Shown: positions 1 to 46,428 of the stretch, piece after piece
Layout of the letters: each line of letters starts with the position of its first letter
How positions within the stretch are numbered: position 1 is the first letter of the stretch
IMG/VR virus record: IMGVR_UViG_2541047870_000005
Direction: 5' to 3' (one strand)
Source of the DNA: a virus
Taxonomy: Duplodnaviria > Heunggongvirae > Uroviricota > Caudoviricetes
DNA length: 55,336 bases
Position numbers and translations under genes: made by a program
Notes under the pieces: model-generated
Databases searched by the model: none
What the model saw: only the letters and a program-made list of their open reading frames with translations
Told to the model about the DNA's origin: nothing

Positions 1-867
1 ATGAAGTATGTCTTTATTGAAAAACATCAGGCTGAGTTCAGCATCAAAGCAATGTGCCGCGTGCTCCGGGTGGCCCGCAGCGGCTGGTATACGTGGTGTC
101 AGCGGCGGACAAGGATAAGCACGCGTCAGCAGTTCCGCCAACACTGCGACAGCGTTGTCCTCGCGGCTTTTACCCGGTCAAAACAGCGTTACGGTGCCCC
201 ACGCCTGACGGATGAACTGCGTGCTCAGGGTTACCCCTTTAACGTAAAAACCGTGGCGGCAAGCCTGCGCCGTCAGGGACTGAGGGCAAAGGCCTCCCGG
301 AAGTTCAGCCCGGTCAGCTACCGCGCACACGGCCTGCCTGTGTCAGAAAATCTGTTGGAGCAGGATTTTTACGCCAGTGGCCCGAACCAGAAGTGGGCAG
401 GAGACATCACGTACTTACGTACAGATGAAGGCTGGCTGTATCTGGCAGTGGTCATTGACCTGTGGTCACGTGCCGTTATTGGCTGGTCAATGTCGCCACG
501 CATGACGGCGCAACTGGCCTGCGATGCCCTGCAGATGGCGCTGTGGCGGCGTAAGAGGCCCCGGAACGTTATCGTTCACACGGACCGTGGAGGCCAGTAC
601 TGTTCAGCAGATTATCAGGCGCAACTGAAGCGGCATAATCTGCGTGGAAGTATGAGCGCAAAAGGTTGCTGCTACGATAATGCCTGCGTGGAAAGCTTCT
701 TTCATTCGCTGAAAGTGGAATGTATCCATGGAGAACACTTTATCAGCCGGGAAATAATGCGGGCAACGGTGTTTAATTATATCGAATGTGATTACAATCG
801 GTGGCGGCGGCACAGTTGGTGTGGCGGCCTCAGTCCGGAACAATTTGAAAACCAGAACCTCGCTTAG
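1..867 (+). CDS. IS3-family transposase OrfB (DDE catalytic domain)
   Basis: 288-aa ORF, identical to ORF 2238-3104 (-); upstream orfA lies outside the window. Confidence 0.85.
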
Positions 868-897
868 GCCTGTGTCCATATTACGTGGGTAGGATCA
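1..897 (+). mobile_element. IS3-family insertion sequence, copy 1 (partial; the window starts inside the element, only the orfB half and right terminal repeat are visible)
   Basis: ORF 1-867 is identical in translation to the orfB of the complete copy at 2238-3104; terminal sequence gtgggtaggatca ending at 897 is the reverse complement of the end of copy 2 at 2208. Confidence 0.8.
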
Positions 898-950
898 GTA
901 GGCTTTTATTCAACCTCGGGTGAAATACACATGCAGTTAAGATTTATGCA

Positions 951-2006
951 ATGTATAACAACAAAGGCGGTGTTGGAAAAACAACACTTGGTTTCAACAT
1001 TGCTGCACAGTATGCAGAAGAAAATCCCAGCACACAGGTACTAGTAATAGATTTGTGTCCGCAAGCAAACATTTCTCAATACCTGCTTGGAGGAGGTGAT
1101 CGTGGGTACAATACTAATCAAGAGCTACAATCTTCACGAACACGCAAAAATGTCGTAGGGTTTCTGGACTGGCTTTTAGATGGCCATTCAAATTTCACCA
1201 GTATTCGACGTTCTTTCAAAGTAGCAGTAAACCAATATAATGATGAAATCAGCGATAATTTGTTTCTCATCGCCGGTGATTCATTCCTCGAGTCCCTTAC
1301 TCTTGCACTGAACTATGCAGTTATCAGTCCAGCTAACAGGTTCGCATGGAAAGAGTATATGACAGCATTTCGTCGACTATGTACTCTAGAACATGATATT
1401 GATGATTACGATGATATGGTTGTCTTTATTGACTGTAATCCAAGTTTTTCTATCTACACCCAAATGGCTCTACTATCTTCAGATAGACTGGTCGTCCCTA
1501 TGATGGCTGATTACAGTTCATTAGAAGGGATGAAAGGAATAATGATGCTTCTTTATGGCCATTATCCCTCTTCTGCTGCACAAACCTATGCAGAAAAGTT
1601 TGTCACTTTTCATAGCCAAGTTGTGAATAATAATCTTACATTACCTAAGTTAGATCGCTTTGTTTTCAATAACTTTACGTCTAATCTTGGTGTTGCCAGA
1701 GCTTATGATTCAATCAAAGAATCCCTTTGTGCTTTTGCTTTTACACAATATCAGAACTTCCCAGAACTATTCACGGAGCGATATCGTGAAATCAATAACT
1801 TAAATGAATGGGAGGCGGCCTATCTTTCTGAAGTTAAAGATTTTCATACTTCAGGGAAAGTTTCTGCAAGTTTGGGAATTCCTCTTTTCAAACTTCCTGC
1901 TCAAACTCATTATGAAATGCCAAACGGTGAAATTATCAACGTTGTAAGAGAGCGTTATCGCGAGGCTAGAGAACATGTAAACGCTTTAGTAGAAACATTC
2001 TATTAA
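951..2006 (+). CDS. ParA/MinD-like P-loop ATPase (deviant Walker A KGGVGKTT), about 100-aa C-terminal extension; 5' end possibly abnormal
   Basis: N-terminus MYNNKGGVGKTT is the deviant Walker A box of the ParA/MinD/Soj superfamily; AT-rich gene; in-frame upstream codons (924-950) read KYHAVKIYA, resembling the beta-strand that normally precedes the P-loop, but no canonical start codon lies upstream. Confidence 0.65.
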   Translation: MYNNKGGVGKTTLGFNIAAQYAEENPSTQVLVIDLCPQANISQYLLGGGDRGYNTNQELQSSRTRKNVVGFLDWLLDGHSNFTSIRRSFKVAVNQYNDEISDNLFLIAGDSFLESLTLALNYAVISPANRFAWKEYMTAFRRLCTLEHDIDDYDDMVVFIDCNPSFSIYTQMALLSSDRLVVPMMADYSSLEGMKGIMMLLYGHYPSSAAQTYAEKFVTFHSQVVNNNLTLPKLDRFVFNNFTSNLGVARAYDSIKESLCAFAFTQYQNFPELFTERYREINNLNEWEAAYLSEVKDFHTSGKVSASLGIPLFKLPAQTHYEMPNGEIINVVRERYREAREHVNALVETFY

Positions 2007-2237
2007 GTGATTATATCGACCCTTGAACATAAAGTACGTTATTATTCAGTGTCTGATATTTTATATGTATTAATCATTATAAATAATGGCTGCATTTAAT
2101 TGTAGCCATTACTTTAAAACATTGTACAAATGGCAGGTGTAGTCTTTAACGCAACTCTAATGATAATCATCAATGTAAATATTCATTTATACTTTAAATG
2201 GGTAGGCTGATCCTACCCACGTAATATGGACACAGGC

Positions 2238-3104
2238 CTAAGCGAGGTTCTGGTTTTCAAATTGTTCCGGACTGAGGCCGCCACACCAACTGTGCCGCCG
2301 CCACCGATTGTAATCACATTCGATATAATTAAACACCGTTGCCCGCATTATTTCCCGGCTGATAAAGTGTTCTCCATGGATACATTCCACTTTCAGCGAA
2401 TGAAAGAAGCTTTCCACGCAGGCATTATCGTAGCAGCAACCTTTTGCGCTCATACTTCCACGCAGATTATGCCGCTTCAGTTGCGCCTGATAATCTGCTG
2501 AACAGTACTGGCCTCCACGGTCCGTGTGAACGATAACGTTCCGGGGCCTCTTACGCCGCCACAGCGCCATCTGCAGGGCATCGCAGGCCAGTTGCGCCGT
2601 CATGCGTGGCGACATTGACCAGCCAATAACGGCACGTGACCACAGGTCAATGACCACTGCCAGATACAGCCAGCCTTCATCTGTACGTAAGTACGTGATG
2701 TCTCCTGCCCACTTCTGGTTCGGGCCACTGGCGTAAAAATCCTGCTCCAACAGATTTTCTGACACAGGCAGGCCGTGTGCGCGGTAGCTGACCGGGCTGA
2801 ACTTCCGGGAGGCCTTTGCCCTCAGTCCCTGACGGCGCAGGCTTGCCGCCACGGTTTTTACGTTAAAGGGGTAACCCTGAGCACGCAGTTCATCCGTCAG
2901 GCGTGGGGCACCGTAACGCTGTTTTGACCGGGTAAAAGCCGCGAGGACAACGCTGTCGCAGTGTTGGCGGAACTGCTGACGCGTGCTTATCCTTGTCCGC
3001 CGCTGACACCACGTATACCAGCCGCTGCGGGCCACCCGGAGCACGCGGCACATTGCTTTGATGCTGAACTCAGCCTGATGTTTTTCAATAAAGACATACT
3101 TCAT
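2238..3104 (-). CDS. IS3-family transposase OrfB
   Basis: 288-aa ORF overlapping the 3' end of orfA in the -1 frame, as expected for the IS3 frameshift-fusion arrangement. Confidence 0.85.
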
Positions 3105-3406
3105 TTCAGACGATTCGCAAAGTATGTCGCGGCCTTTTGGAGGATAGCCAGTTCCTCTGCCTGCTCCGCCAGTTGCCGCTTCAGGCGGGCATTTTCAGCG
3201 GCCAGTTCACTTTCACGCTCTGACGAACTCATTTGTTGCTGCAGTTTGCTGCGCCACGCATAGAGCTGTGATTCATACAGGCTGAGTTCACGGGCTGCGG
3301 CAGCAACACCGATGCGTTCAGCAAGTTTCAGGGCTTCACTGAGAAATTCAGGCGAATGCTGTTTACGTTTTTTTACTGGTTGAAACTGTTTTGTCTTGTG
3401 AGTCAC
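3101..3406 (-). CDS. IS3-family transposase OrfA (HTH DNA-binding, leucine zipper); GTG start
   Basis: 101-aa ORF ...[38 protein letters not shown]...[16 protein letters not shown] closely resembles IS3 OrfA; the start codon at 3404-3406 is GTG on the minus strand. Confidence 0.8.
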
Positions 3407-3504
3407 CTCTGACTGAGAGTTTACTCACTTAGCCGCGTGTCCACTATTGCTGGGTAAGATCAGGCTTACAGAAAAATAAAACCTGCCGTAGCAGGTTCTC
3501 TTTC

Positions 3505-3720
3505 TTAAAAATTCATATGGCCCTGACCATCTGGCAATGGATGTGGAGGGGCTGTGGCAATCACTGCAGGTGTCACAATAAACCGGACCACTGTTTCATG
3601 GGTAACAAAAGTGCTCCCGCAGTTAATATTTTGGCACTGGCAGTAACGCTCTTTGGTGCTTTCCGTTACTTGAAAACTGCTCCTTGTGTGCGCCGCATGA
3701 CCACACTTTGGACAATTCAT
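3505..3720 (-). CDS. ogr: Ogr-type zinc-finger late-gene transcriptional activator
   Basis: CPKCGHAAHTRSS...KERYCQCQNINCGSTF matches the Ogr/Delta C2C2 zinc-finger pattern; start taken at the internal Met (MNCPKCG), the ORF track begins at 3768. Confidence 0.8.
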   Translation of the reverse strand: MNCPKCGHAAHTRSSFQVTESTKERYCQCQNINCGSTFVTHETVVRFIVTPAVIATAPPHPLPDGQGHMNF

Positions 3721-3791
3721 CATATCCAGATCCCTACCTTTGCTATCAGAATCAATGCAATGATACACAAAATATCGATATTGAGAACCAT

Positions 3792-4892
3792 TTATTCCAT
3801 TTCAAGATCATTAATTTTCACTTCAAGTTCAATACTGGTTGTAAAACCGTTATCCGGGCTGACGGTATGCGTCAGAGTCGTAATGGTCCATTCCGCATCA
3901 TCTATCGGCTGTTTAAAGCCACTGACTTTCACTGGCATTTCCGTGTAGAGATCTGCCCGCCCTTCTGCCAGTTGTAGCGAGAATGACGCAACGCCGCGTT
4001 GCAGGCGTTCCCACTGCATTTTCGCCGCTCGTTCGGCGTTGCTCCGGTTGGCATAAGTGCGATTAAGTACCAGCACGTTTTCATCCGTACCCACCAGGTA
4101 ATCGCCCTGCTTCGCTTCCGGCTCTTTCTTCTGCTTCTTAGTTCTGCGCTTACGCTTCACCGTGGTGCTTTCTTTCTTCGCAGGTTCGCGGGTATGCAAC
4201 CAGCTGGCAATTACGCCCGTGTAGGCTCCGCGATCTGCCAGGGTAAAGCGGTGACTGTCGCCGTCCTTGCGTGTGATAGTGATCACTGGCAGTGGTTTAC
4301 CAGTGGCGCTTTTGCCCTGCCCCTGCCGGATGAATAGCAGATTGCCATTTTTCACCGACGCGATGGCACCGTACTGTCGCGCCAGCCGCATCAGAAAACT
4401 GCCGTCACTCTCATTAGTCTGGTCTATATGTTCCACGGGCTTATCCGACAGGTCTTTACCCAGCGCCATCTTCAGCTTGTGACGCGCGGCTATTTCCTTT
4501 ACCACTTCCCCGACGGTGGTCTTGTGCCAAGATTTTTCACGGCGGGTATTCAGGGTTTCCCGAAAATCAGCACTTCGCGCCCGGATAGTCAGGCGGTCCG
4601 GTGCGCCAGTGTGTTCAATCTCGTCCACCGTGAATGCCCCTTTCGGGAAAAGCGGCTGCCCCTTCCAGCCCAGCGCCAGCGTAATGACCGCACCACGGCG
4701 CGGCAGCACGATTTTTCCATCGGCGTCGTCCAGCTCCAGATCAAGCTGGTCCGCTTCAAATCCCCGGTTATCCGTCAGCGTCAGCCCCATCAGGCGGTTG
4801 TCCAGCACAGTGGTGATATCCCTGCCTTCAATACTGATGCTGAATGCCGGAGTTTTGTTGCCTTTGTTAAGCAGTTCAGAGCTGAAATTCAC
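3792..4892 (-). CDS. D: P2 gpD-like tail protein (late control D)
   Basis: 366-aa ORF at the gpD position between ogr and U; size and synteny. Confidence 0.75.
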   Translation of the reverse strand: MNFSSELLNKGNKTPAFSISIEGRDITTVLDNRLMGLTLTDNRGFEADQLDLELDDADGKIVLPRRGAVITLALGWKGQPLFPKGAFTVDEIEHTGAPDRLTIRARSADFRETLNTRREKSWHKTTVGEVVKEIAARHKLKMALGKDLSDKPVEHIDQTNESDGSFLMRLARQYGAIASVKNGNLLFIRQGQGKSATGKPLPVITITRKDGDSHRFTLADRGAYTGVIASWLHTREPAKKESTTVKRKRRTKKQKKEPEAKQGDYLVGTDENVLVLNRTYANRSNAERAAKMQWERLQRGVASFSLQLAEGRADLYTEMPVKVSGFKQPIDDAEWTITTLTHTVSPDNGFTTSIELEVKINDLEME

Positions 4893-33210: not shown

Positions 33211-33855
33211 ATGGAGTATTTGATGATCAACATTCAGGCAGGTCCCAATACGGGAGGTAGAGAGGCGATCGAAAGATTGCTTAAGGCATATGGATTCAGC
33301 ACCAAACAAGCACTAGCTGACCATTTAAAAATTTCAAAAAGCACTATGGCAAACAGAAACTTACGAGATAGCTTTCCTGCTGAGTGGGTCATCCAGTGTG
33401 CACTTGAAACAGGGGTTTCGCTGCTATGGCTAGCCACAGGCCAGGGTGAAATGTTCACTTCAGAAGATCGAGAAAAAAATCCCGTAAACGAGTCAAACGT
33501 CACGCTTCGACCACTTTCCAAAATCGTTGCCCCCAGCATTAAGCAAGCCGAATTGAAGAATGGGGAGTTGAATAACGAAGGGGAAGTCTTGCTTGATAGC
33601 AGCTTACTGGACAGTGAGCCCGGCAATTCATTGTTTATAAAAACGTCTACTGACTGCTTTGTAGTGGATATATCTGTCAAACAGGTTAGCAATGGTTACT
33701 GGCTTGTCGATATTGATGGGGTGAAAAGCATCGTCAAGATTGCCCGAATACCAGGCAACAGAATTGTTGTTCACCAGGACGACTCATCCTTTGAGTGTTC
33801 TGTTGATGATGTGGAAGTTGTCGGGCGAGCCATTAAAGTAATCAAGAGTATTTAG
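33211..33855 (+). CDS. cI: CI-type immunity repressor (186-like, N-terminal HTH plus C-terminal domain)
   Basis: 214-aa ORF upstream of int, HTH motif STKQALADHLKISKSTMANR; true start may be the Met at 33223. Confidence 0.75.
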   Translation: MEYLMINIQAGPNTGGREAIERLLKAYGFSTKQALADHLKISKSTMANRNLRDSFPAEWVIQCALETGVSLLWLATGQGEMFTSEDREKNPVNESNVTLRPLSKIVAPSIKQAELKNGELNNEGEVLLDSSLLDSEPGNSLFIKTSTDCFVVDISVKQVSNGYWLVDIDGVKSIVKIARIPGNRIVVHQDDSSFECSVDDVEVVGRAIKVIKSI

Positions 33856-33857
33856 TC

Positions 33858-34877
33858 ATGACCATCAGGAAACAGCCGAACGGAAAATGGTTGTGTGAGT
33901 GCTACCCTAACGGGCGGGACGGCAAGCGCGTGCGCAAGCAATTTGCGACGAAAGGCGAAGCCGTAGCATTCGAAAACTTCACCATGGATGAAGTAAACAA
34001 AAAACCATGGCTGGGGGAAAAGGAAGATCGGCGGCATCTGTCAGAAGTGATAGAGCAATGGCACTCACTATACGGGCAGACGCTCGCAGACCCCAAACGC
34101 CTGATGGCGAAACTTAGAATTATCTGTAATGGCCTGGGCGACCCTATCGCCTCAGAGCTGACCGCCGGAGATTTTACGAAATACCGTGAAGCGCGATTAA
34201 AAGGTGAAGTGCGAAATGAAGATGGCGCGCTTATGTCGCCAGTTAAGCCCCGAACGGTAAACCTCGAACAACGCAACCTATCATCAGTTTTTGGGACTCT
34301 GAAAAAACTGGGCCACTGGTCAGCCCCTAACCCGCTCGCCGGTCTGCCAACATTCAAAATCGCAGAGGGTGAACTGGCATTCCTGACCCCAGAAGAAATT
34401 AAACGCCTGCTGGATGCCTGCGCGGATTCTCAAAGCCCCAGCCTGCTGATGATTGCAAAAATATGCCTAGCTACTGGTGCGCGGTGGAGTGAAGCAGAAA
34501 ACCTGCAGGGCCATCAGTTATCAAAATACCGCATCACTTATACCAAGACGAAGGGCAAGAAAAACCGTACCGTGCCGATATCTCAGGATCTGTATGACGA
34601 ACTCCCCAAGAACAGAGGGAAGTTATTCACCCCATGCAGAAAAGCTTTTGAGCGTGCAGTTAAACGAGCTGGTATCGACTTGCCAGAGGGACAATGTACC
34701 CACGTCTTGCGCCATACATTCGCCAGTTACTTTATGATGAATGGAGGGAATATTCTTGTACTAAGAGATATTTTAGGCCATTCAGATATAAAAATGACTA
34801 TGGTCTATTCTCATTTTTCACCTGAGCATCTTGAAGATGCTGTAACAAAAAACCCTTTATCATCACTAGCGATTTAA
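33858..34877 (+). CDS. int: Tyrosine integrase (P2/186 Int family)
   Basis: 339-aa ORF after cI; C-terminal catalytic-region motifs (HVLRHTFAS, LGHSDIKMTMVYSH). Confidence 0.85.
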   Translation: MTIRKQPNGKWLCECYPNGRDGKRVRKQFATKGEAVAFENFTMDEVNKKPWLGEKEDRRHLSEVIEQWHSLYGQTLADPKRLMAKLRIICNGLGDPIASELTAGDFTKYREARLKGEVRNEDGALMSPVKPRTVNLEQRNLSSVFGTLKKLGHWSAPNPLAGLPTFKIAEGELAFLTPEEIKRLLDACADSQSPSLLMIAKICLATGARWSEAENLQGHQLSKYRITYTKTKGKKNRTVPISQDLYDELPKNRGKLFTPCRKAFERAVKRAGIDLPEGQCTHVLRHTFASYFMMNGGNILVLRDILGHSDIKMTMVYSHFSPEHLEDAVTKNPLSSLAI

Positions 34878-34881
34878 CATA

Positions 34882-36093
34882 ATGAAAATTAATAAAATTA
34901 GTACCACAGATTATGTAGCAATGCTTAATGAAATATTATTCGAAATAGAGTCCAAACCACTATTACAAGCTCCTTATCTCGCGGGAAATAATATCATTAA
35001 AGATTTTAACAATAGGGTTAAATGTTACCTAGAAGTCATAAACAAGATTTACAGTAAAAACCCTCACAACCTTGTAATTCGTGAAATAAAATCAAAAATA
35101 AAAAGCACAAAAACACTCTCGGATAAAATTTCAGAAACACTTAGATTATATTTAAACGGTAAAATCAAAGAATCTTACCTAACATTTGATCACGCTATCA
35201 CCAAGACAAATATAAATGACCACATCTATAATATGTCCGTTCCATTAAGTGTATTTTGTCATCCTGGAAAACCTCTATTTCGCGTAAGAAAAAGCGATCA
35301 AATAATAAAAGAAAGGCGTGATATCTTTCATATTCCTTTTTCTAAACGTTATCTTGTGAATGCACAAAGATACTCAGTCTCAGGCCTTCCTTGTTTATAT
35401 TTAGGAACCTCTATTTTTGTATGTTGGCAAGAAATGGAAAAACCAGACTTTGATAAATTATATGTATCTTCATTCATCACAGAGTCTGGTTCATCACATA
35501 GAATACTTAACCTTGGTTATAATTTGAGATCAGCATTGAACATAAACACCTTAGCATGGCTGTTAGATAATGATACTGAAGGAACTATGAATAGGGTCAT
35601 TTCGAACTTAATTTCCTGGCCACTTGTGTTAGCCTGTAATTATACAAAACAACATAAAAACTCTAGTTTCAACCCTGAGTACATAATCCCCAACCTTCTT
35701 ATGCAATGGCTCAGCAGCAATGAAAATAAGGGCATAGCCGGTATCGCTTATCGCACGACTAAAATTCTCAATCAAAAAGATAGTGATATTGGTATTAATA
35801 TAATCATGCCACCTAAAATGGATAATATTTTGGATTCTGGTTATGATTACTGCCCACACTTACTAAATATATTTAAATTTACCAAACCTGTTTCATGGCA
35901 AGTATTTAGCACTTTAAACGTCAAGACCGATGGTATGGATGAAGATAGACTCATAATGGGAGGACCAACTCCAGCATCAGGTACAATTGAAGATTTTGAT
36001 GAATCGCTAGTGGAATATTACAATAATACCTCATTCAAAAAAGTTCAATTGTTAATTCATAAAATGATGAAGCATGATTATCTTGAGCCTTAA
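34882..36093 (+). CDS. RES-domain-like protein (403 aa) with about 150-aa N-terminal extension; AT-rich cargo
   Basis: Segment RYSVSGLPCLYLGTSIFVCWQE reproduces the spacing of the RES-domain core (R-W-N-x-P-G-x-P-x-L-Y-x-x-x-S...E) as I recall the consensus. Confidence 0.5.
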   Translation: MKINKISTTDYVAMLNEILFEIESKPLLQAPYLAGNNIIKDFNNRVKCYLEVINKIYSKNPHNLVIREIKSKIKSTKTLSDKISETLRLYLNGKIKESYLTFDHAITKTNINDHIYNMSVPLSVFCHPGKPLFRVRKSDQIIKERRDIFHIPFSKRYLVNAQRYSVSGLPCLYLGTSIFVCWQEMEKPDFDKLYVSSFITESGSSHRILNLGYNLRSALNINTLAWLLDNDTEGTMNRVISNLISWPLVLACNYTKQHKNSSFNPEYIIPNLLMQWLSSNENKGIAGIAYRTTKILNQKDSDIGINIIMPPKMDNILDSGYDYCPHLLNIFKFTKPVSWQVFSTLNVKTDGMDEDRLIMGGPTPASGTIEDFDESLVEYYNNTSFKKVQLLIHKMMKHDYLEP

Positions 36094-36126
36094 GTGGCGG
36101 CGTTTTGGCGGTAGAGTATTAAGAGG

Positions 36127-37080
36127 ATGCAGTTACAAAAAACCTCTAACTCCATTATAGAAATAGGAAGTGATCTGATGAATAACATCATCTATACAAA
36201 CGAACAATATGAAATCGAAAATCTAAGTATAGCCCTGTATGCAATTTTCGATAAAATAAAAGAAAGGATTTCCATCGCCGAAGAATCTAACATTTACACT
36301 ATCAGAGATGTTGGTCATAACTCGGAATCTCAAGTTTGCAAAAACACTTTTAATAAATTAACGCAATTTTTTGATTCAAACATTCTTTACATCCAAGACT
36401 GTGAAGTCTTAATTTCATATATAACAGAGTGTAGTTTGGAACTCTCTGTTATAGCGCAACAATTTTATGAAATACTCTGGAGCGATTTGTTAATAACCAC
36501 ACCAGACAAAGATTTTAAAGGGATTTTAGTAGCAAAATCGCCAAAAACAAGCTTGCTATTTTCTTTGTTAAGCATGCTATTTATAAAAATGAATAGTTTG
36601 TTTGACTACGTTACTAAAATCTCCTTTGAATTATTAAAGAGTAACTTCCCAATCTCTAAATACAAGAAATTAATATCCAAAAATAAATTATACGGCAACT
36701 ATAAAGAATTAGTTTTTTCGACAACAACGGATACCATATTTGAAAATAGCAATTTTATAAACACTGTAACATCATTACGAAATCATATAATTCACCACGG
36801 TTATATAGATGAGCACCCAAAGGTATATGTTGAAGTGGAAAATGGCATTGCATTTGGGAGATTTGTACTATTCCCCGATTTGAATGAGAGTGGAGGACTG
36901 GAAAATTGCATTAACAGAACTTTATTCTATTCAAAAGAAACAAAGATTGATGAAAAATTACCTGACTTAATTAAGGAATGCCAAATTAAAGTAATTAACT
37001 CGTTGAAGGTACTAATTAAAGATCATGAAGCATTAGAAGATTCAAGAAAGACTGGCGGCACTTTGGCGGCAGAGCATTAA
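36127..37080 (+). CDS. Hypothetical 317-aa protein with HEPN-like Rx4H motif (Abi-like candidate); AT-rich cargo
   Basis: Motif LRNHIIHHGY; gene lies 33 bp downstream of the RES-like gene on the same strand. Confidence 0.45.
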   Translation: MQLQKTSNSIIEIGSDLMNNIIYTNEQYEIENLSIALYAIFDKIKERISIAEESNIYTIRDVGHNSESQVCKNTFNKLTQFFDSNILYIQDCEVLISYITECSLELSVIAQQFYEILWSDLLITTPDKDFKGILVAKSPKTSLLFSLLSMLFIKMNSLFDYVTKISFELLKSNFPISKYKKLISKNKLYGNYKELVFSTTTDTIFENSNFINTVTSLRNHIIHHGYIDEHPKVYVEVENGIAFGRFVLFPDLNESGGLENCINRTLFYSKETKIDEKLPDLIKECQIKVINSLKVLIKDHEALEDSRKTGGTLAAEH

Positions 37081-37165
37081 AAACGAGTAAAATGAACAAA
37101 CACCGAGTAATACCAACCTACTGTTTTAAAAAGCAAATCATTGTTTTTGTTATAGTTAAGATAGT

Positions 37166-37210
37166 ATGTAGGAATTTCGGACGCGGGTTCAACTCCCGCC
37201 AGCTCCACCA
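37166..37210 (+). other. ssrA: 45-nt 3' terminal fragment of tmRNA gene ssrA ending in CCA (integration core / att copy), not a complete ssrA
   Basis: atgtaggaatttcggacgcgggttcaactcccgccagctccacca matches the E. coli ssrA 3' end; sequence upstream does not continue the ssrA match. Confidence 0.8.
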
Positions 37211-37245
37211 AATAATGATCCGGATACGTCCGGTGAAGTACAGAA

Positions 37246-37279
37246 AGCCCGCATGGCACAAGCCCTGCGGGCTTTTTTG
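37246..37279 (+). terminator. Rho-independent terminator downstream of the ssrA core
   Basis: agcccgca-tggcacaagccc-tgcgggct followed by tttttt. Confidence 0.7.
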
Positions 37280-37330
37280 TGTTTGTCGTTGTCCGAGAAC
37301 ATCCGGCTAAATCCGATGATTATTGGTATA

Positions 37331-37384
37331 CGTTTCGGTATACGGTAGGATGTATACCTAAAAGCGTATACCAATTCATGAAGG
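37331..37384. promoter_or_regulatory. Cluster of four GGTATAC/GTATACC sites upstream of the satellite integrase gene
   Basis: ttGGTATACgtttcGGTATACggtaggatGTATACCtaaaagcGTATACC; the first 23 bp recur at 49543-49565. Confidence 0.5.
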
Positions 37385-37394
37385 AGCGGCCACA

Positions 37395-38594
37395 GTGGCA
37401 CGGACAACACGCCCCCTGACCAACACCGAAGTTCTGCGCGCGAAAGCGTTAGAGAAGGATCTAACGCTGCATGATGGCGATGGGCTTTTCCTGATAGTGA
37501 AAACTAGCGGCAAGAAACTCTGGCGCTTTCGCTATCAACGCCCAGCAACAAAACAGCGGACTATGATGGGACTTGGTGCTTTTCCTGCCCTTTCTCTTGC
37601 TGATGCCCGAGGGTTAAGAGCAGATTACCTTGCCCTATTAGCCAACGGAATCGACCCGCAAATTCAAGCTGAAGTTGCAGAGGAACAGCAGCAAATCGCT
37701 CTGGACAGTATTTTTTCGACGGTCGCCGCTAACTGGTTCCAGCTCAAAAGCAAAAGCGTTACCCATGATTACGCTAAAGATATATGGCGTTCACTGGAAA
37801 AAGACGTATTCCCCACCATCGGGGAGATCCCTGTCCAGCAAATCAAAGCCCGAACACTGGTTGAAGCCCTTGAACCGATCAAAGCTCGTGGGGCGCTGGA
37901 GACGGTGCGCCGGTTGGTGCAGCGTGTTAACGAGATAATGATTTATGCCGTAAATACTGGTCTTATTGATGCCAATCCAGCATCAGGCATTGGAATGGCC
38001 TTTGAGAAGCCAAAAAAACAAAATATGCCTACGTTGCGCCCAGAAGAATTGCCTATGCTGATGCGTTCTCTCGTCATGTCAAATTTGTCTGTTCCGACTC
38101 GCTGCCTCATTGAGTGGCAACTCCTGACTCTAGTTCGTCCTTCTGAGGCTTCCGGTGCTAGGTGGGCTGAGCTCGATCTCGATGCAAAGCTCTGGACTAT
38201 CCCAGCTGAACGAATGAAGGCTAAGCGGGAACACATAGTCCCTCTATCTCCTCAGGCATTAGAGATTCTTGATGTGATGAAGCTAATCAGTGCCCATCGT
38301 GAACATGTTTTCCCGAGTCGGAATGACCCAAAGCAACCAATGAATAGCCAGACGGCAAATGCTGCTTTAAAAAGGATTGGATTTGGTGGTAGATTGGTTG
38401 CTCATGGATTGCGTTCAATTGCCAGCACCGCATTAAATGAAGCGGGTTTTAATGCAGATGTAATTGAGGCTGCTCTTGCACATAGTGATAAAAATGAAGT
38501 GCGCAGAGCATATAATCGTTCAACTTACCTTGAGCAACGAATAGGACTTATGAATTGGTGGGGCCAAAAAGTGTACGAGCGCAATCAATATTAG
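37395..38594 (+). CDS. P4-type tyrosine integrase (IntA-like); GTG start
   Basis: 399-aa ORF about 185 bp downstream of the ssrA core, as for intA next to ssrA in E. coli K-12; integrase-like N-terminal region. Confidence 0.85.
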   Translation: MARTTRPLTNTEVLRAKALEKDLTLHDGDGLFLIVKTSGKKLWRFRYQRPATKQRTMMGLGAFPALSLADARGLRADYLALLANGIDPQIQAEVAEEQQQIALDSIFSTVAANWFQLKSKSVTHDYAKDIWRSLEKDVFPTIGEIPVQQIKARTLVEALEPIKARGALETVRRLVQRVNEIMIYAVNTGLIDANPASGIGMAFEKPKKQNMPTLRPEELPMLMRSLVMSNLSVPTRCLIEWQLLTLVRPSEASGARWAELDLDAKLWTIPAERMKAKREHIVPLSPQALEILDVMKLISAHREHVFPSRNDPKQPMNSQTANAALKRIGFGGRLVAHGLRSIASTALNEAGFNADVIEAALAHSDKNEVRRAYNRSTYLEQRIGLMNWWGQKVYERNQY

Positions 38595-38623: not shown

Positions 38624-39082
38624 ATGGAGAATAATCTAGATAATTTATGTTATGAATTCTTTAGAGAGTTTTCACGTTATGAATATTGCCTTAAGGCATG
38701 TGGACTTCATCATAAAATAAAAGATGCTAAAGCGAACTGGGATGAGTATGCAAAGCAAGTTTCTGAAATCATAAATAACACAACTGATCCAGAGCTAATT
38801 GCTGCTATCACCTACTTTAAAGAACACCCACCCAAAAAACAAATCATAGAAGATGACTCTTTAGTTTGGGATGATTCTTTACCACAAGAAAAAGATTTAG
38901 CAAAATTTCTTTTTTTGTTAATCCGCCGTGTAAGAAACAATCTTTTTCACGGAGGAAAATTTAACGGGAAATGGTTTGAACCTGAACGTAGTGAGGCGTT
39001 ACTGCAACATGGCCTTGTTATTTTGAGGCATTGCGGCACAAGGCATAGTGAAGTAAGCAAAGCCTATTCTGGAATAGCCTGA
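38624..39082 (+). CDS. Hypothetical 152-aa protein with HEPN-like Rx4H motif
   Basis: Motif RRVRNNLFHGG; AT-rich; first cargo gene after int. Confidence 0.45.
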   Translation: MENNLDNLCYEFFREFSRYEYCLKACGLHHKIKDAKANWDEYAKQVSEIINNTTDPELIAAITYFKEHPPKKQIIEDDSLVWDDSLPQEKDLAKFLFLLIRRVRNNLFHGGKFNGKWFEPERSEALLQHGLVILRHCGTRHSEVSKAYSGIA

Positions 39083-39174: not shown

Positions 39175-41757
39175 CTATTGTACCCAAAAGTTACGAAATA
39201 TATTATGTATTTCGTTTTGAACTAATTGTGGCAGTTCTTCCATGTCAACTTTATTGTCCTTAATCCAATTAATGCATTCTTCCTCATCTAAACTATCATT
39301 AGGAATAAGCTCTGAAATCATTACAGCAGCAGTTCTTGAAAAGCCAAGCCCTATTAGTGAAATCTGAGTTTTTAAACTTACACCCAGTTCTAAATAAACA
39401 CCGATATCTTCAACATCTTTTGCTAAGTCTGTGCGATCTATCGAAAGATAAAAGCTTTTTAATAAATCATTATAACATCCTAAAAGCCTTGGAGCTTGAT
39501 AGCGAGCGATCTCTTCAACATCCTTCATAACCCCTCGTATTAAAGTCGCTTCTTTGAAAACAATATTTTTCTTTTTGTTATATCTTATTCTATCCGAGAT
39601 CAATCTTGCTAGGGGATAACCTTTCATCCACTTGGAAACTAACAAGGCCTGTACGTAAGCTCCTTTTGAATTATAACCTAGCTTCTTACTCAGAGTATCA
39701 CTAATTCTAGAGAATGCGGATACATATGAATCTAACGCATCATTACTACCAGGTTCAGAAAGCAGTAATCTCTCTACAGGTTTGTTTGTATCCCGCGAAA
39801 ATCTATCCCAAAGGTTTTGCATTAAAAGCGGGCTTATACCAGGATGCCGCACAACCAATTCGTGTGGAAAAGTTAAAGAATCAAAAACATCAAATATTGC
39901 TTCATTTAAAACATCGATATTTTTTATATTGTACTTTTCCATGTAAGGATTATTATCCAAGCCATTATAAAAATAAAATGATGAACATAAATAACTAAAT
40001 AGACTCTGGAGATTAGGATTCCGCTCAGACATACCAAAATGATGCTCTGAAAAAATATAGGAAACCAACTTATCCATGTCATGGGAAATAGCATCCGTGG
40101 CGCGAGTTATAAATATATTTTTTTTGGTTTTTGGAGGCTCTCCATTCCAAATTTTTTCATTGTCGCTATCGATGCAGATGACATTACCTTGGAATTCTTT
40201 TCCCCAACGACCAGCTCTGCCAGCAAGATTCCAAAAATCCTCTTCTCGCATCGGGGTTGAATTACCCTTTTTAGGGCCTCTTATAAAAATATTTTTACAA
40301 GCCATGTTTACGCCCTCAACTAAAGTTGAGGTACAAATTAAAAAATCAATCTTACCTTTACTAAACAATCGTTCAATCTCGCCCTTTATTATTAAAGGCA
40401 TGTTGCCATAATGAAAAGCGACTCTCTTTTTTAGAGTGCGATTTAATGCGAAATTTTTATGTATAATTGTCTCACTAAGCTCAACGAGAGCTAAAATTTC
40501 TTCATCCTCAGTCTCATTTTCTATACTTGCAGATATTAGCTTGGAAGTAGATTCTGCTTCAGCGGCTCCATTTACGTAAACTACGTTACCAGAAGCCCCC
40601 TTACCTAAACAAAGAGCTACAAAAGGCAATCTTTTACTTTCAGGAGATGGTGCATTTTCTAAAGAAAAGTTTCCTAACTCGCGTTTTTCACCGTTTGCAA
40701 AATAATACATCAACCAATCTTTGGTCTTGCGTGGTTTTTGTTCTACCCATATTAAATTTTGATTAACTGTAACATAGTCACTTTTTATAGTTCTTTTGTT
40801 TTTTAATATTGGAGCATCACTGAGCAATATTTCAGGATTTAAGGTGAAAGGACTTGCAAAGATAACTTTTGAATCAGGGTTATTTAGACAAGTCAGTTCA
40901 ATTACATGTTGAAGAATAACACCTCTTCCACCATCACCGATCTTGTGTGCTTCATCAACAACTAAGACGTCTATCTTTGGAATTTGTGAGAAATGATTGT
41001 AGAATAAATTTAATCTTTCCTGTGTAAATATGAAGACATTAGATTTTTCGCTCTGGTATACATTACTCAATGGTAGTGTCTGAATATTAACTATATTTGT
41101 TAAATTAGGATCCAAACGTTTTTGCAACTCAGAATATACTTCTGAAATCAATGCCCTTGTTGGTACGATATAAATAACTAAGCAATTCTTATTTCTTTTT
41201 ACAAACTGCTCCACCCAAGATTCCAGGATAAATGATTTTCCTACAGAGGTAGGAGCAGAGACACTAACCCATGAGTTTTCTTGTACCGCATCCCAAAACT
41301 CTGATTGAAACCTATTAGCATAAATATGCTTATCAGCATCTATTTCAATTGTATATAGAATTTTTCTTTTAGTTAGTTCTAACTGAGCCTTTAAGGGTAA
41401 TCTTTCTTCGAAATCAGGGTTAAGATACCCCCTATTTTCAGCAAGTTGTATTGCTGGATTATTAGATAATGAATCAAGAATTAATGCAGCACTATCTTTT
41501 CTTGCTTCACTTTTTTCATTCAATAAGCAATACTGTGCAATCCTTAAGGCTGCATCTTGGCATTTCTCATCACTTGAGAAAGCCAAAGAACTAGCACATG
41601 TTAAAAGATAGCCGACATCCTCAGAACTAATCTGTGGGATTACATCTGATTTTAACTCTGGAAATTGATCTTTTATCGAGTTAGCGACTAATGCCTGATA
41701 TTTTCTTAAGAATCCTTGATTCTTAATCAACCACCCAGATAAATCTCGCAACGACAT
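39175..41757 (-). CDS. hamB: SF2 DExH-box helicase, HamB-like (Hachiman-type defence helicase candidate)
   Basis: 860-aa AT-rich ORF; Walker A APTSVGKSF and motif II VLVVDEAHKIG; start overlaps the stop of the upstream gene. Confidence 0.55.
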   Translation of the reverse strand: MSLRDLSGWLIKNQGFLRKYQALVANSIKDQFPELKSDVIPQISSEDVGYLLTCASSLAFSSDEKCQDAALRIAQYCLLNEKSEARKDSAALILDSLSNNPAIQLAENRGYLNPDFEERLPLKAQLELTKRKILYTIEIDADKHIYANRFQSEFWDAVQENSWVSVSAPTSVGKSFILESWVEQFVKRNKNCLVIYIVPTRALISEVYSELQKRLDPNLTNIVNIQTLPLSNVYQSEKSNVFIFTQERLNLFYNHFSQIPKIDVLVVDEAHKIGDGGRGVILQHVIELTCLNNPDSKVIFASPFTLNPEILLSDAPILKNKRTIKSDYVTVNQNLIWVEQKPRKTKDWLMYYFANGEKRELGNFSLENAPSPESKRLPFVALCLGKGASGNVVYVNGAAEAESTSKLISASIENETEDEEILALVELSETIIHKNFALNRTLKKRVAFHYGNMPLIIKGEIERLFSKGKIDFLICTSTLVEGVNMACKNIFIRGPKKGNSTPMREEDFWNLAGRAGRWGKEFQGNVICIDSDNEKIWNGEPPKTKKNIFITRATDAISHDMDKLVSYIFSEHHFGMSERNPNLQSLFSYLCSSFYFYNGLDNNPYMEKYNIKNIDVLNEAIFDVFDSLTFPHELVVRHPGISPLLMQNLWDRFSRDTNKPVERLLLSEPGSNDALDSYVSAFSRISDTLSKKLGYNSKGAYVQALLVSKWMKGYPLARLISDRIRYNKKKNIVFKEATLIRGVMKDVEEIARYQAPRLLGCYNDLLKSFYLSIDRTDLAKDVEDIGVYLELGVSLKTQISLIGLGFSRTAAVMISELIPNDSLDEEECINWIKDNKVDMEELPQLVQNEIHNIFRNFWVQ

Positions 41758-45877: not shown

Positions 45878-46428
45878 TGATGCCTGAACGCATTAATCCC
45901 CATTTTTCTGGCTTGCATCCTGCAGTCATTTCCAGGTATAGTTTTTCCGCTGCCGCAAAATCGGCAGCCGGAATTGGCGTTCCGCGAAACTCAATGGCGA
46001 CACCAGACGCGCCAAGCGTCTTTTTTTTCGTCGAAGCTCTGGCACACCCATTTTCCAGGCTGTGGTGTTTATGCGTACACCGTGGTTCTTTCGAGATAAT
46101 GGCAGTCCGGGCGGGGCAGCCTTCGGGCTGGCCGGTATCCATTGAGGCCGGTTACGCCAACCCCGTTCGGGCTGCCACCAGTGAAATTGGCGTTTCCGGT
46201 GGTAGCAATAACCGCTACTCAATGGAGGCTGCCATCATGGCTACAACCCTCACCCCGTTTTACCCGCAATATGTCTTTGTGCTTGCCGCAATCCGCCGTG
46301 CTGACACTCAACCCCGCATCTGTATGCTTCGCACCGTGGCCTGCGATGAGCGCTTTGCACGCCTTTCGCTGGTCCGTGATTATGTGCTCTCCCTTTCTGC
46401 ACGGCTGCCTGCCGGGGAGGTGATGTGA
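45877..46428 (+). CDS. Hypothetical protein (start uncertain), translationally coupled to downstream genes
   Basis: GC-rich ORF whose stop overlaps the next start (ATGA); several overlapping alternative ORFs on both strands make the 5' end unreliable. Confidence 0.35.

Follow-up and report, generated by a model that had tools for sequence, protein, structure and literature searches.

The stretch of DNA analysed here (the window; 55,336 nucleotides, IMG/VR record IMGVR_UViG_2541047870_000005) is part of an Escherichia coli chromosome and contains a prophage with the gene layout of the Fels-2/186-like P2 family (Peduoviridae), in the order CI repressor, integrase, gene 1, gene 2 and the core of an attachment site in ssrA. 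Genes 1 and 2, which fill the interval between the integrase and this core, are the subject of this analysis. All features of the interval lie on the plus strand. The rightward cI-int transcription unit begins with the CI repressor gene (33211..33855), for which the E. coli D3 annotation gives 'phage repressor protein CI'; the CI genes at homologous loci match Pfam Phage_CI_repr and Phage_CI_C. Next comes the gene for a tyrosine integrase, int (33858..34877; Pfam Int_N, 1.3e-27, and Phage_integrase, 5.4e-23), which forms the left border of the cargo slot and has 92-100% identity across the relatives anchoring all compared loci. Gene 1 (34882..36093; WP_021552396, phrog_7835), whose start is 4 nt from the int stop codon, encodes a solo RES-like protein of 403 amino acids. 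Gene 2 (36178..37080; WP_021552397, phrog_31026) encodes a solo HEPN-like protein of 300 amino acids, the last nine codons of which run through an arm element of the attachment site. The att core (37166..37210), a 45-nt exact copy of the 3' terminus of ssrA (transfer-messenger RNA, tmRNA), has no second match in the window and is kept in all compared loci.

The GC content is 0.323 in gene 1 and 0.310 in gene 2, against 0.485 in int and 0.479 over the window as a whole. This agrees with the initial annotation, made from the sequence of the window, which had placed two co-directional AT-rich genes between the end of int and the ssrA core, as open reading frames (ORFs) 34882-36093 and 36127-37080. 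The region from 34700 to 37400 is 100% identical in seven complete genomes, for example that of strain D3 (NZ_CP010140.1), and both genes are present in 11 of 5426 complete genomes, all 11 being near-identical copies from one lineage.

The longest ORF of gene 2 (36127-37080, plus strand) does encode 317 amino acids, as first annotated; however, the ATG at 36127 belongs to the leftover 3' end of an integrase gene, described below, so that the real start is placed at 36178, giving 300 amino acids. The corrected start is supported by the starts of the homologues, the Prokaryotic Genome Annotation Pipeline (PGAP) annotation and a good Shine-Dalgarno sequence, AGGAAG. Residue numbers of gene 2 are given here in the 317-residue numbering. 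The C-terminal GGTLAAEH of its product was considered as a functional peptide and rejected, being the arm element read in frame; the same tail is found on some gene 1 homologues and on other cargo proteins.

Relationships of the two proteins

The AlphaFold model of the gene 1 product is confident (predicted local distance difference test, pLDDT, 83.9; predicted template modelling score, pTM, 0.86) and has a RES/ADP-ribosyltransferase-like (ART-like) fold. When 66 family members sharing 36-68% identity with the query are aligned, the residues R134, R136, R163, S165, G168, P170-G175 (PCLYLG), S177 and E184 are invariant (66/66). These include the putative site for nicotinamide adenine dinucleotide (NAD), with codons at 35281-35289 (R134/R136), 35368-35370 (R163), 35398-35400 (Y173) and 35431-35433 (E184). 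In the RES toxin MbcT, NAD+ phosphorolysis needs R27, R47, Y58 and, partly, E69 (PMC6436930). The order of residues is the same in gene 1 (R136 or R134, R163, Y173, E184), and the spacing R163-10-Y173-11-E184 parallels R47-11-Y58-11-E69 of MbcT. The RES core that the initial annotation had read from a handful of positions is thus borne out by the fold and by the spacing of the invariant residues.

Profile and homology searches point the same way. Gene 1 belongs to phrog_7835 (5e-181), a family of unknown function in PHROGs, and to a family that comprises over 315 clusters in the Enterobacteriaceae, some members of which are named 'RES domain-containing protein' in UniRef. In the comparison with Pfam, the RES signal comes from the relatives and not from the window protein: 38 of the 66 relatives have weak, sub-threshold matches to RES (PF08808; best E 0.0045), which map to residues ~141-183 and to profile positions 10-51, and no other family is matched by more than nine of them. 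YopC of the Bacillus phage SPbeta forms a bridge, matching both gene 1 (tblastn, 8e-32) and Pfam RES (1.4e-4, 22.4 bits against a cut-off of 23.2). CARTA_33 of the Escherichia phage Cartapus, found in the same slot between int and attP, is a second homologue (tblastn, 8e-79), annotated by the Cartapus authors as 'putative RES protein, NAD+ binding domain'. Gene 1 has a ratio of nonsynonymous to synonymous substitution rates (dN/dS) of 0.089 against a 95%-identical homologue, showing that it is under purifying selection. Taken with the model, these relationships support the prediction that gene 1 encodes a divergent, YopC-like solo RES-domain enzyme with an intact R...R...Y...E NAD site.

The RES-like core of gene 1 is preceded by an N-terminal helical extension (residues 1-117, 34882..35232; helices at 8-117 in the AlphaFold2 secondary structure), which has the motif LxGxIxxAYxxF at residues 91-102. 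L91 and G93 of this motif are invariant in the 66 sequences, while I95, A98, Y99 and F102 are nearly so. Neither gene 1 nor its relatives gave a helix-turn-helix (HTH) or DUF2384 match, and no gene for an Xre-type antitoxin was found next to gene 1, where int lies 4 nt upstream and the arm element or gene 2 downstream. The arm element begins 1-2 nt after gene 1 in the relatives. A hidden antitoxin ORF was also considered and rejected, since the gaps measure only 4 nt and 1 nt, and since antisense ORFs within gene 1 lack conservation across the cargo relatives.

Gene 1 differs in these respects from the characterised RES-Xre type II toxins (MbcT, P. putida Res, ParT, NatT and VPA0770). It lacks an Xre/COG5642 antitoxin gene, is two to three times longer, with the 117-residue N-terminal helical extension, insertions and a C-terminal extension, falls under the Pfam RES threshold, and is prophage cargo at an attachment site, whereas those toxins belong to chromosomal or plasmid toxin-antitoxin (TA) loci. 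YopC and CARTA_33 are direct homologues of gene 1 within phrog_7835 and are known as phage 'RES domain' proteins; CARTA_33 shares with gene 1 the slot between int and attP, and YopC shares the motif of the extension, in the form L-x-G-x-h-x-x-A-Y-x-x-F. Unlike gene 1, yopC is not next to an attachment site and follows the 75-residue HTH gene yopB, while gene 1 in the window differs from both homologues in being followed by a second cargo gene. In SPbeta (yopB-yopC, 2249-3912 of locus L105), yopB, of the Cro/C1 type (Pfam HTH_26, 3.6e-17), precedes yopC. Its product is reminiscent of the Xre antitoxins of RES toxins, but much shorter, and may be a regulator or a minimal antitoxin lost in the enterobacterial phages.

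For gene 2, the LRNHIIHHGY segment reported in the initial annotation is present, and the HEPN assignment drawn from it is supported. Two motifs define catalytic HEPN domains, Rx4-6H with a polar residue after the arginine and an upstream motif of the Ex3[KR] type (PMC3710099). Gene 2 has R218-N-H-I-I-H223 (36778..36795) as the Rx4H motif and D160-x3-K164 (36604..36618) as the upstream acidic/basic motif. In 82 aligned sequences, G63, D160, R218, H223, R264 and F267 are invariant, K164 is kept in 81, and R218 is followed by N in 59, D in 11 and H in 9 sequences, 79 of the 82 in all; the invariance of R218, H223 and D160 reaches relatives of ~20-25% identity. In the structure model, which is very confident (pLDDT 92.3), the Rx4H motif stands at the end of helix 209-224, and D160 and K164 are in the long helix 139-171.

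As for gene 1, the Pfam signal comes from the relatives, 19 of the 82 having sub-threshold matches to HEPN_Cthe2314 (PF18730). The best of these (2.8e-5, 24.6 bits against 27.1) maps to gene 2 residues 146-227, spanning both motifs, and no other family is matched by more than three of the relatives. The only PHROGs match is to a family of unknown function, and a Foldseek comparison of the model with the PDB gave no significant match. The word-indexed homologue search returned four clusters (three of them others than that of gene 2, at 49-53% identity), or seven with a profile; the exhaustive profile search of representatives returned 240 distant relatives, and tblastn against phage records gave no match. 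Mainly because of the motifs and the transitive profile matches, gene 2 probably encodes a HEPN RNase-like protein distantly related to the Cthe_2314 family.

Like the Cthe_2314-like HEPN proteins (PF18730) and the HEPN effectors of abortive infection that consist of one protein (AbiD/AbiF-type, ApeA), gene 2 has the invariant R-[NDH]-x3-H motif and the upstream D-x3-K. The Cthe_2314 family is listed as stand-alone, without conserved partners (PMC3710099), which also applies to gene 2. Unlike these proteins, gene 2 has a helical region of ~130 residues before the HEPN core and itself has no PF18730 or PADLOC match; it also has a conserved beta-hairpin region (233-270, with the invariant R264 and F267), for which the searches drew no link to known HEPN proteins. 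One distant homologue of gene 2 adjoins a type III restriction-modification system. Another, P0125, of two metagenome contigs (L020 and L021), lies downstream of a VapBC-like pair (a 77-residue protein and a PIN domain protein) and also has a protein of 142-161 residues upstream, in a context unlike the prophage slot.

Pairing of the genes and the cargo slot

The initial annotation had proposed that the RES-like and HEPN-like proteins form one module. As a two-component abortive-infection or toxin-antitoxin-like system, one product would sense or neutralise the other, and the arrangement in the window is compatible with this: the genes are adjacent and co-directional, with 84 nt from the stop codon of gene 1 to the corrected start of gene 2 and no terminator-like site between them, both have toxin-type domains, and the pair is 100% conserved in the seven complete genomes and present in 11. 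However, these 11 are near-identical copies of a single lineage, and elsewhere each gene occurs alone. The three other clusters of gene 2 (Klebsiella, Enterobacter and one metagenome assembly) all have it alone between int and att of related prophages (3/3), without gene 1. The gene 1 homologues of Salmonella, Klebsiella and Escherichia are alone in the same slot in all the relatives looked up, one Salmonella variant being indexed in 6108 collection blocks, and 27 of the 28 survey loci with gene 1, as well as the separately fetched gene 1 loci, are without gene 2. The nearest relative of gene 1 (locus L023) has int (99% identity) and gene 1 (95% amino acid identity) followed directly by an intact arm element and core, a normal attachment site. 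The two-gene module is consequently regarded as very improbable, and the claim of a joint system was not sustained.

The sequence between the two genes also argues against a module. Directly after the gene 1 stop codon lies a degenerate extra P-arm element of the attachment site (TGGCGGCGtttTGGCGGTAGAGTATTAA; 36095..36121), recognised as a pattern match with two mismatches; in the relatives with gene 1 only, an intact element occupies this position and the ssrA core follows 133 nt further. Next to it is a remnant of ~29 nt of an integrase 3' end (GAGGATGCAGTTACAAAAAACCTCTAA, encoding EDAVTKNL*; 36122..36150), which aligns with the int 3' ends of the window and of the loci with gene 2 only (L004, L008 and L009). 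At the junction there is a short stretch of homology between GAGCATTAA, with which the arm element ends, and GAGCATCTAGAGGATGC of the int 3' region. Because a copy of the arm site and an integrase remnant stand between the genes, their juxtaposition is read as a recent recombination accident. On the evidence of sequence and distribution, genes 1 and 2 are two independent single-gene cassettes stacked by recombination, and not a two-gene system.

The simplest reading of the junction is an unequal crossover between a phage carrying gene 1 and one carrying gene 2. The ancestral state would have been int, gene 1 and att, as in L023, and the donor a related phage with int, gene 2 and att. The crossover would have taken place at the shared microhomology GAGCAT(T/C)TA(A/G), fusing the arm element, at its end, with the 3' end of the donor int and leaving the degenerate arm element and the int remnant between the genes as its residue.

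The right border of the slot is formed by tandem TGGCGGCA repeats (37053..37072), 11 bp apart, which are the presumed arm-type integrase sites of the P arm of att. Together they make up the arm element TGGCGGCAnnnTGGCGGCAG, 20 nt long, which lies 133 nt upstream of the ssrA core wherever both are found, whatever the cargo, and occurs once per related locus; the variable part among the loci is the distance from the int stop codon to this element. The attL of E. coli D3 has the same tandem TGGCGGCA repeat and an inverted copy ~50 nt beyond ssrA. Since repeats at both sides are the classical arrangement of arm-type integrase sites, TGGCGGCAnnnTGGCGGCAG would mark the outer edge of the functional attP, and the slot is here defined as extending from the int stop codon to the outermost arm-type Int site of attP.

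The contents of the slot were surveyed in 80 IMG/VR loci anchored on int (94-100% int identity, among 416 int relatives), of which 70 were informative and 10 uninformative. The flanks are conserved and the cargo is variable, with seven cargo families and an empty state. YopC-like RES proteins are the commonest cargo, a RES-like gene being present alone in 27 of the 70 informative loci, and the RES and HEPN pair was found in one locus, a copy of the window arrangement (99-100% amino acid identity). The other occupants are a family of membrane proteins of 343-377 residues (13-14 loci), a family of 477-527 residues (4 loci), a family of 308 residues (2 loci), a dCTP deaminase (2 loci; PADLOC dCTPase, 5.3e-141), which is a known defence gene, and a membrane protein of 216 residues (1-2 loci). 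The slot is empty in 19 loci, where the arm element follows 20 nt after int; the earlier statement that int normally abuts attP in such phages is therefore correct for these 19 of the 70 informative loci, while the rest carry cargo.

Four of the single-gene families in the slot are unannotated: those of 343-377 residues (loci L026, L040 and L068), 477-527 residues (L043 and L097), 308 residues (L049) and 216 residues (L099). N-terminal transmembrane segments are found in two of the four. They had no significant Pfam match and no PADLOC match, one 308-residue protein having a weak, sub-threshold match to ArAE_1_C (E 8.5e-4), and they are candidates for additional prophage cargo functions. The other side of attP (8586-8633 in L003, the E. 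coli D3 attL; 3748-4230 in L104, CARTA_32 of Cartapus) has a moron gene for a 160-residue protein, annotated as 'putative exonuclease' and having a weak BRCT-like Pfam match (9e-4), the level of its expression in LF82 being 15-fold above background. The stretch from ssrA to the moron contains TGGCGRCA repeats, both tandem and inverted.

Proposed function

The tin/old and Z/fun loci of P2-like phages were reportedly described as defence loci by Rousset et al. in 2022. Like the P2-like defence hotspots (tin/old, Z/fun and int-att), the slot between int and att has fixed flanks and a variable cargo that is AT-rich and consists mostly of single genes. A report of a minor defence hotspot in P2-like phages concerns the int-att interval itself (10.64898/2026.02.27.708500); in comparison with that report, the right border at the nucleotide level, the empty state and a stacking event are documented here, and the RES-like and HEPN-like occupants are absent from PADLOC v2.

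Here it is proposed that the slot of the window holds two stacked, unrelated solo cassettes, each of which is likely to act as an independent, self-restrained effector of abortive infection or superinfection defence, a reading held with reasonable confidence. In the lysogen, both genes would be weakly co-transcribed with cI-int. Upon a phage cue, the gene 1 protein would consume NAD+, by phosphorolysis, hydrolysis or ADP-ribosyl transfer, and the gene 2 protein would cleave RNA, the non-catalytic extensions of both proteins serving as sensor or auto-inhibitor. No terminator-like site intervenes between cI-int and the cargo; for terminator-like and promoter sites that might separate cI-int from the cargo, or gene 1 from gene 2, the counts were not above those of shuffled sequence.

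A broader version of this proposal is put forward tentatively, as somewhat less than an even prospect. In this version, the solo RES proteins related to YopC would make up a widespread anti-phage system of one gene that has so far escaped recognition; the place of the Xre antitoxin would be taken by the fused N-terminal helices, acting as both sensor and auto-inhibitor of an NAD+-consuming toxin. The Cthe_2314-like HEPN protein would be a second one-gene effector of this kind, for abortive infection, and the stacking would reflect prophages accumulating independent defences at a site bounded by arm sites.

Several results weigh against the proposed defence function or the assignments on which it is built. 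Direct hmmscan searches of gene 1 and of gene 2 against Pfam, NCBIfam and PADLOC gave nothing at E<=1, and searches of PDB sequences with the profiles A1, A2 and A3 and with YopC gave noise only. The one-to-one equivalence of the gene 1 residues to the NAD site of MbcT is taken from their spacing and a partial hidden Markov model (HMM) alignment, not from a superposition, and the binding of Int to the TGGCGGCA repeats is likewise presumed from the repeats themselves. In the literature, no functional study was found of yopC/SPbeta, of the RES domain in Fels-2 or of RES in anti-phage defence.

In one alternative, one or both proteins would be catalytically inactive folds with a role in binding or structure, or in decay, their motifs being remnants or chance. 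In favour of this, no curated HMM threshold was reached and the Foldseek result for gene 2 was non-significant. Furthermore, the R-E-S motif is a loose criterion because in MbcT the serine of the triad is dispensable and the glutamate only partly needed (PMC6436930). Nevertheless, R134, R136, R163, Y173 and E184 of gene 1 do not vary in 66 sequences down to 36% identity, nor do R218, H223 and D160 of gene 2 in 82 sequences down to ~20-25%; with the low dN/dS of gene 1 (0.089) and both ORFs intact in all copies, inactivity is the least probable of the explanations, below even the two-gene module.

Real RES and HEPN enzymes could also act outside anti-phage defence, in prophage maintenance or addiction through post-segregational killing, host dormancy or persistence, the phage lytic cycle, or counter-defence, for instance by using up immune signals made from NAD or by modifying a host protein as ParT does. 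The RES toxin NatT reportedly acts in host dormancy and persistence. In favour of this, yopC lies in SPbeta away from att, in a block that also contains yopB, for an HTH regulator, and further phage genes; lysogens show no notable expression of the Cartapus homologue, and for the characterised RES toxins the roles are TA-type growth control (PMC6436930) and persistence, not proven phage defence. Against it stand the occurrence of a bona fide defence gene, the dCTP deaminase, among the alternative occupants of the slot, and the position of the slot in a reported defence hotspot. Addiction, in particular, needs a labile antitoxin, for which there is no room between int and gene 1 (4 nt) or between gene 1 and the arm element (1 nt). 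A function outside defence is thus considered unlikely, though clearly more credible than either inactive folds or a two-gene module, and independent defence effectors remain the preferred interpretation of both genes.

Without a two-gene RES and HEPN system, the finding is reduced from a new system to two ordinary, uncharacterised cargo genes. The int-att hotspot, RES and HEPN as kinds of effector, and the RES annotation of the Cartapus homologue were already known. What is new is a RES architecture with an N-terminal extension and no antitoxin as the slot's dominant cargo, a remote Cthe_2314-like HEPN family as alternative cargo, the definition of the slot at the nucleotide level, and the stacking scar. 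To our knowledge, RES toxins are known only as toxins of toxin-antitoxin systems neutralised by Xre, and a large phage-borne subfamily with a fused extension and no antitoxin would represent a different regulatory solution. This subfamily is a candidate NAD-depleting defence that is missing from current defence catalogues (no PADLOC match), and each of the two is a one-gene candidate that is simple to clone, in a hotspot whose untested genes often protect. The slot definition, from the int stop codon to the tandem TGGCGGCA situated 133 nt before the ssrA core, offers a simple way to harvest further candidates, and the scar would provide a concrete mechanism for the stacking of defences.

Neighbouring elements of the window

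A complete tmRNA gene or complete ssrA/attL was looked for in the window and none was found; positions 1-3500 have IS3-family transposase (insertion sequence) sequences instead of the complete ssrA/attL of strain D3. The left junction of the prophage differs from all complete genomes searched, none of which covers at least 80% of positions 1-4200.

After the prophage, a P4-like satellite with its own integrase (37395-38594) extends from 37395 to ~47000, so that a helper-type prophage and a P4-like satellite are arranged in tandem at one att site (ssrA). Between the satellite integrase and the gene for HamB is an ORF (38624-39082, plus strand) for a protein of 152 amino acids (phrog_19013, WP_016809720) with the Rx4H-type motif RNNLFHGG. 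It had no Pfam or NCBIfam match and only noise in PADLOC (Cas8c, E ~0.01), and by its motif it could be a mini-HEPN accessory or separate cargo. The int-psu hotspot of the satellite holds the Hachiman system, with HamB (39175-41757, minus strand; PADLOC E=0) and a protein with the HamA C-terminal domain. Further along, the satellite has Psu, ogr/Delta, the C4 antisense RNA (46095-46182) and isrK (45949-46026).

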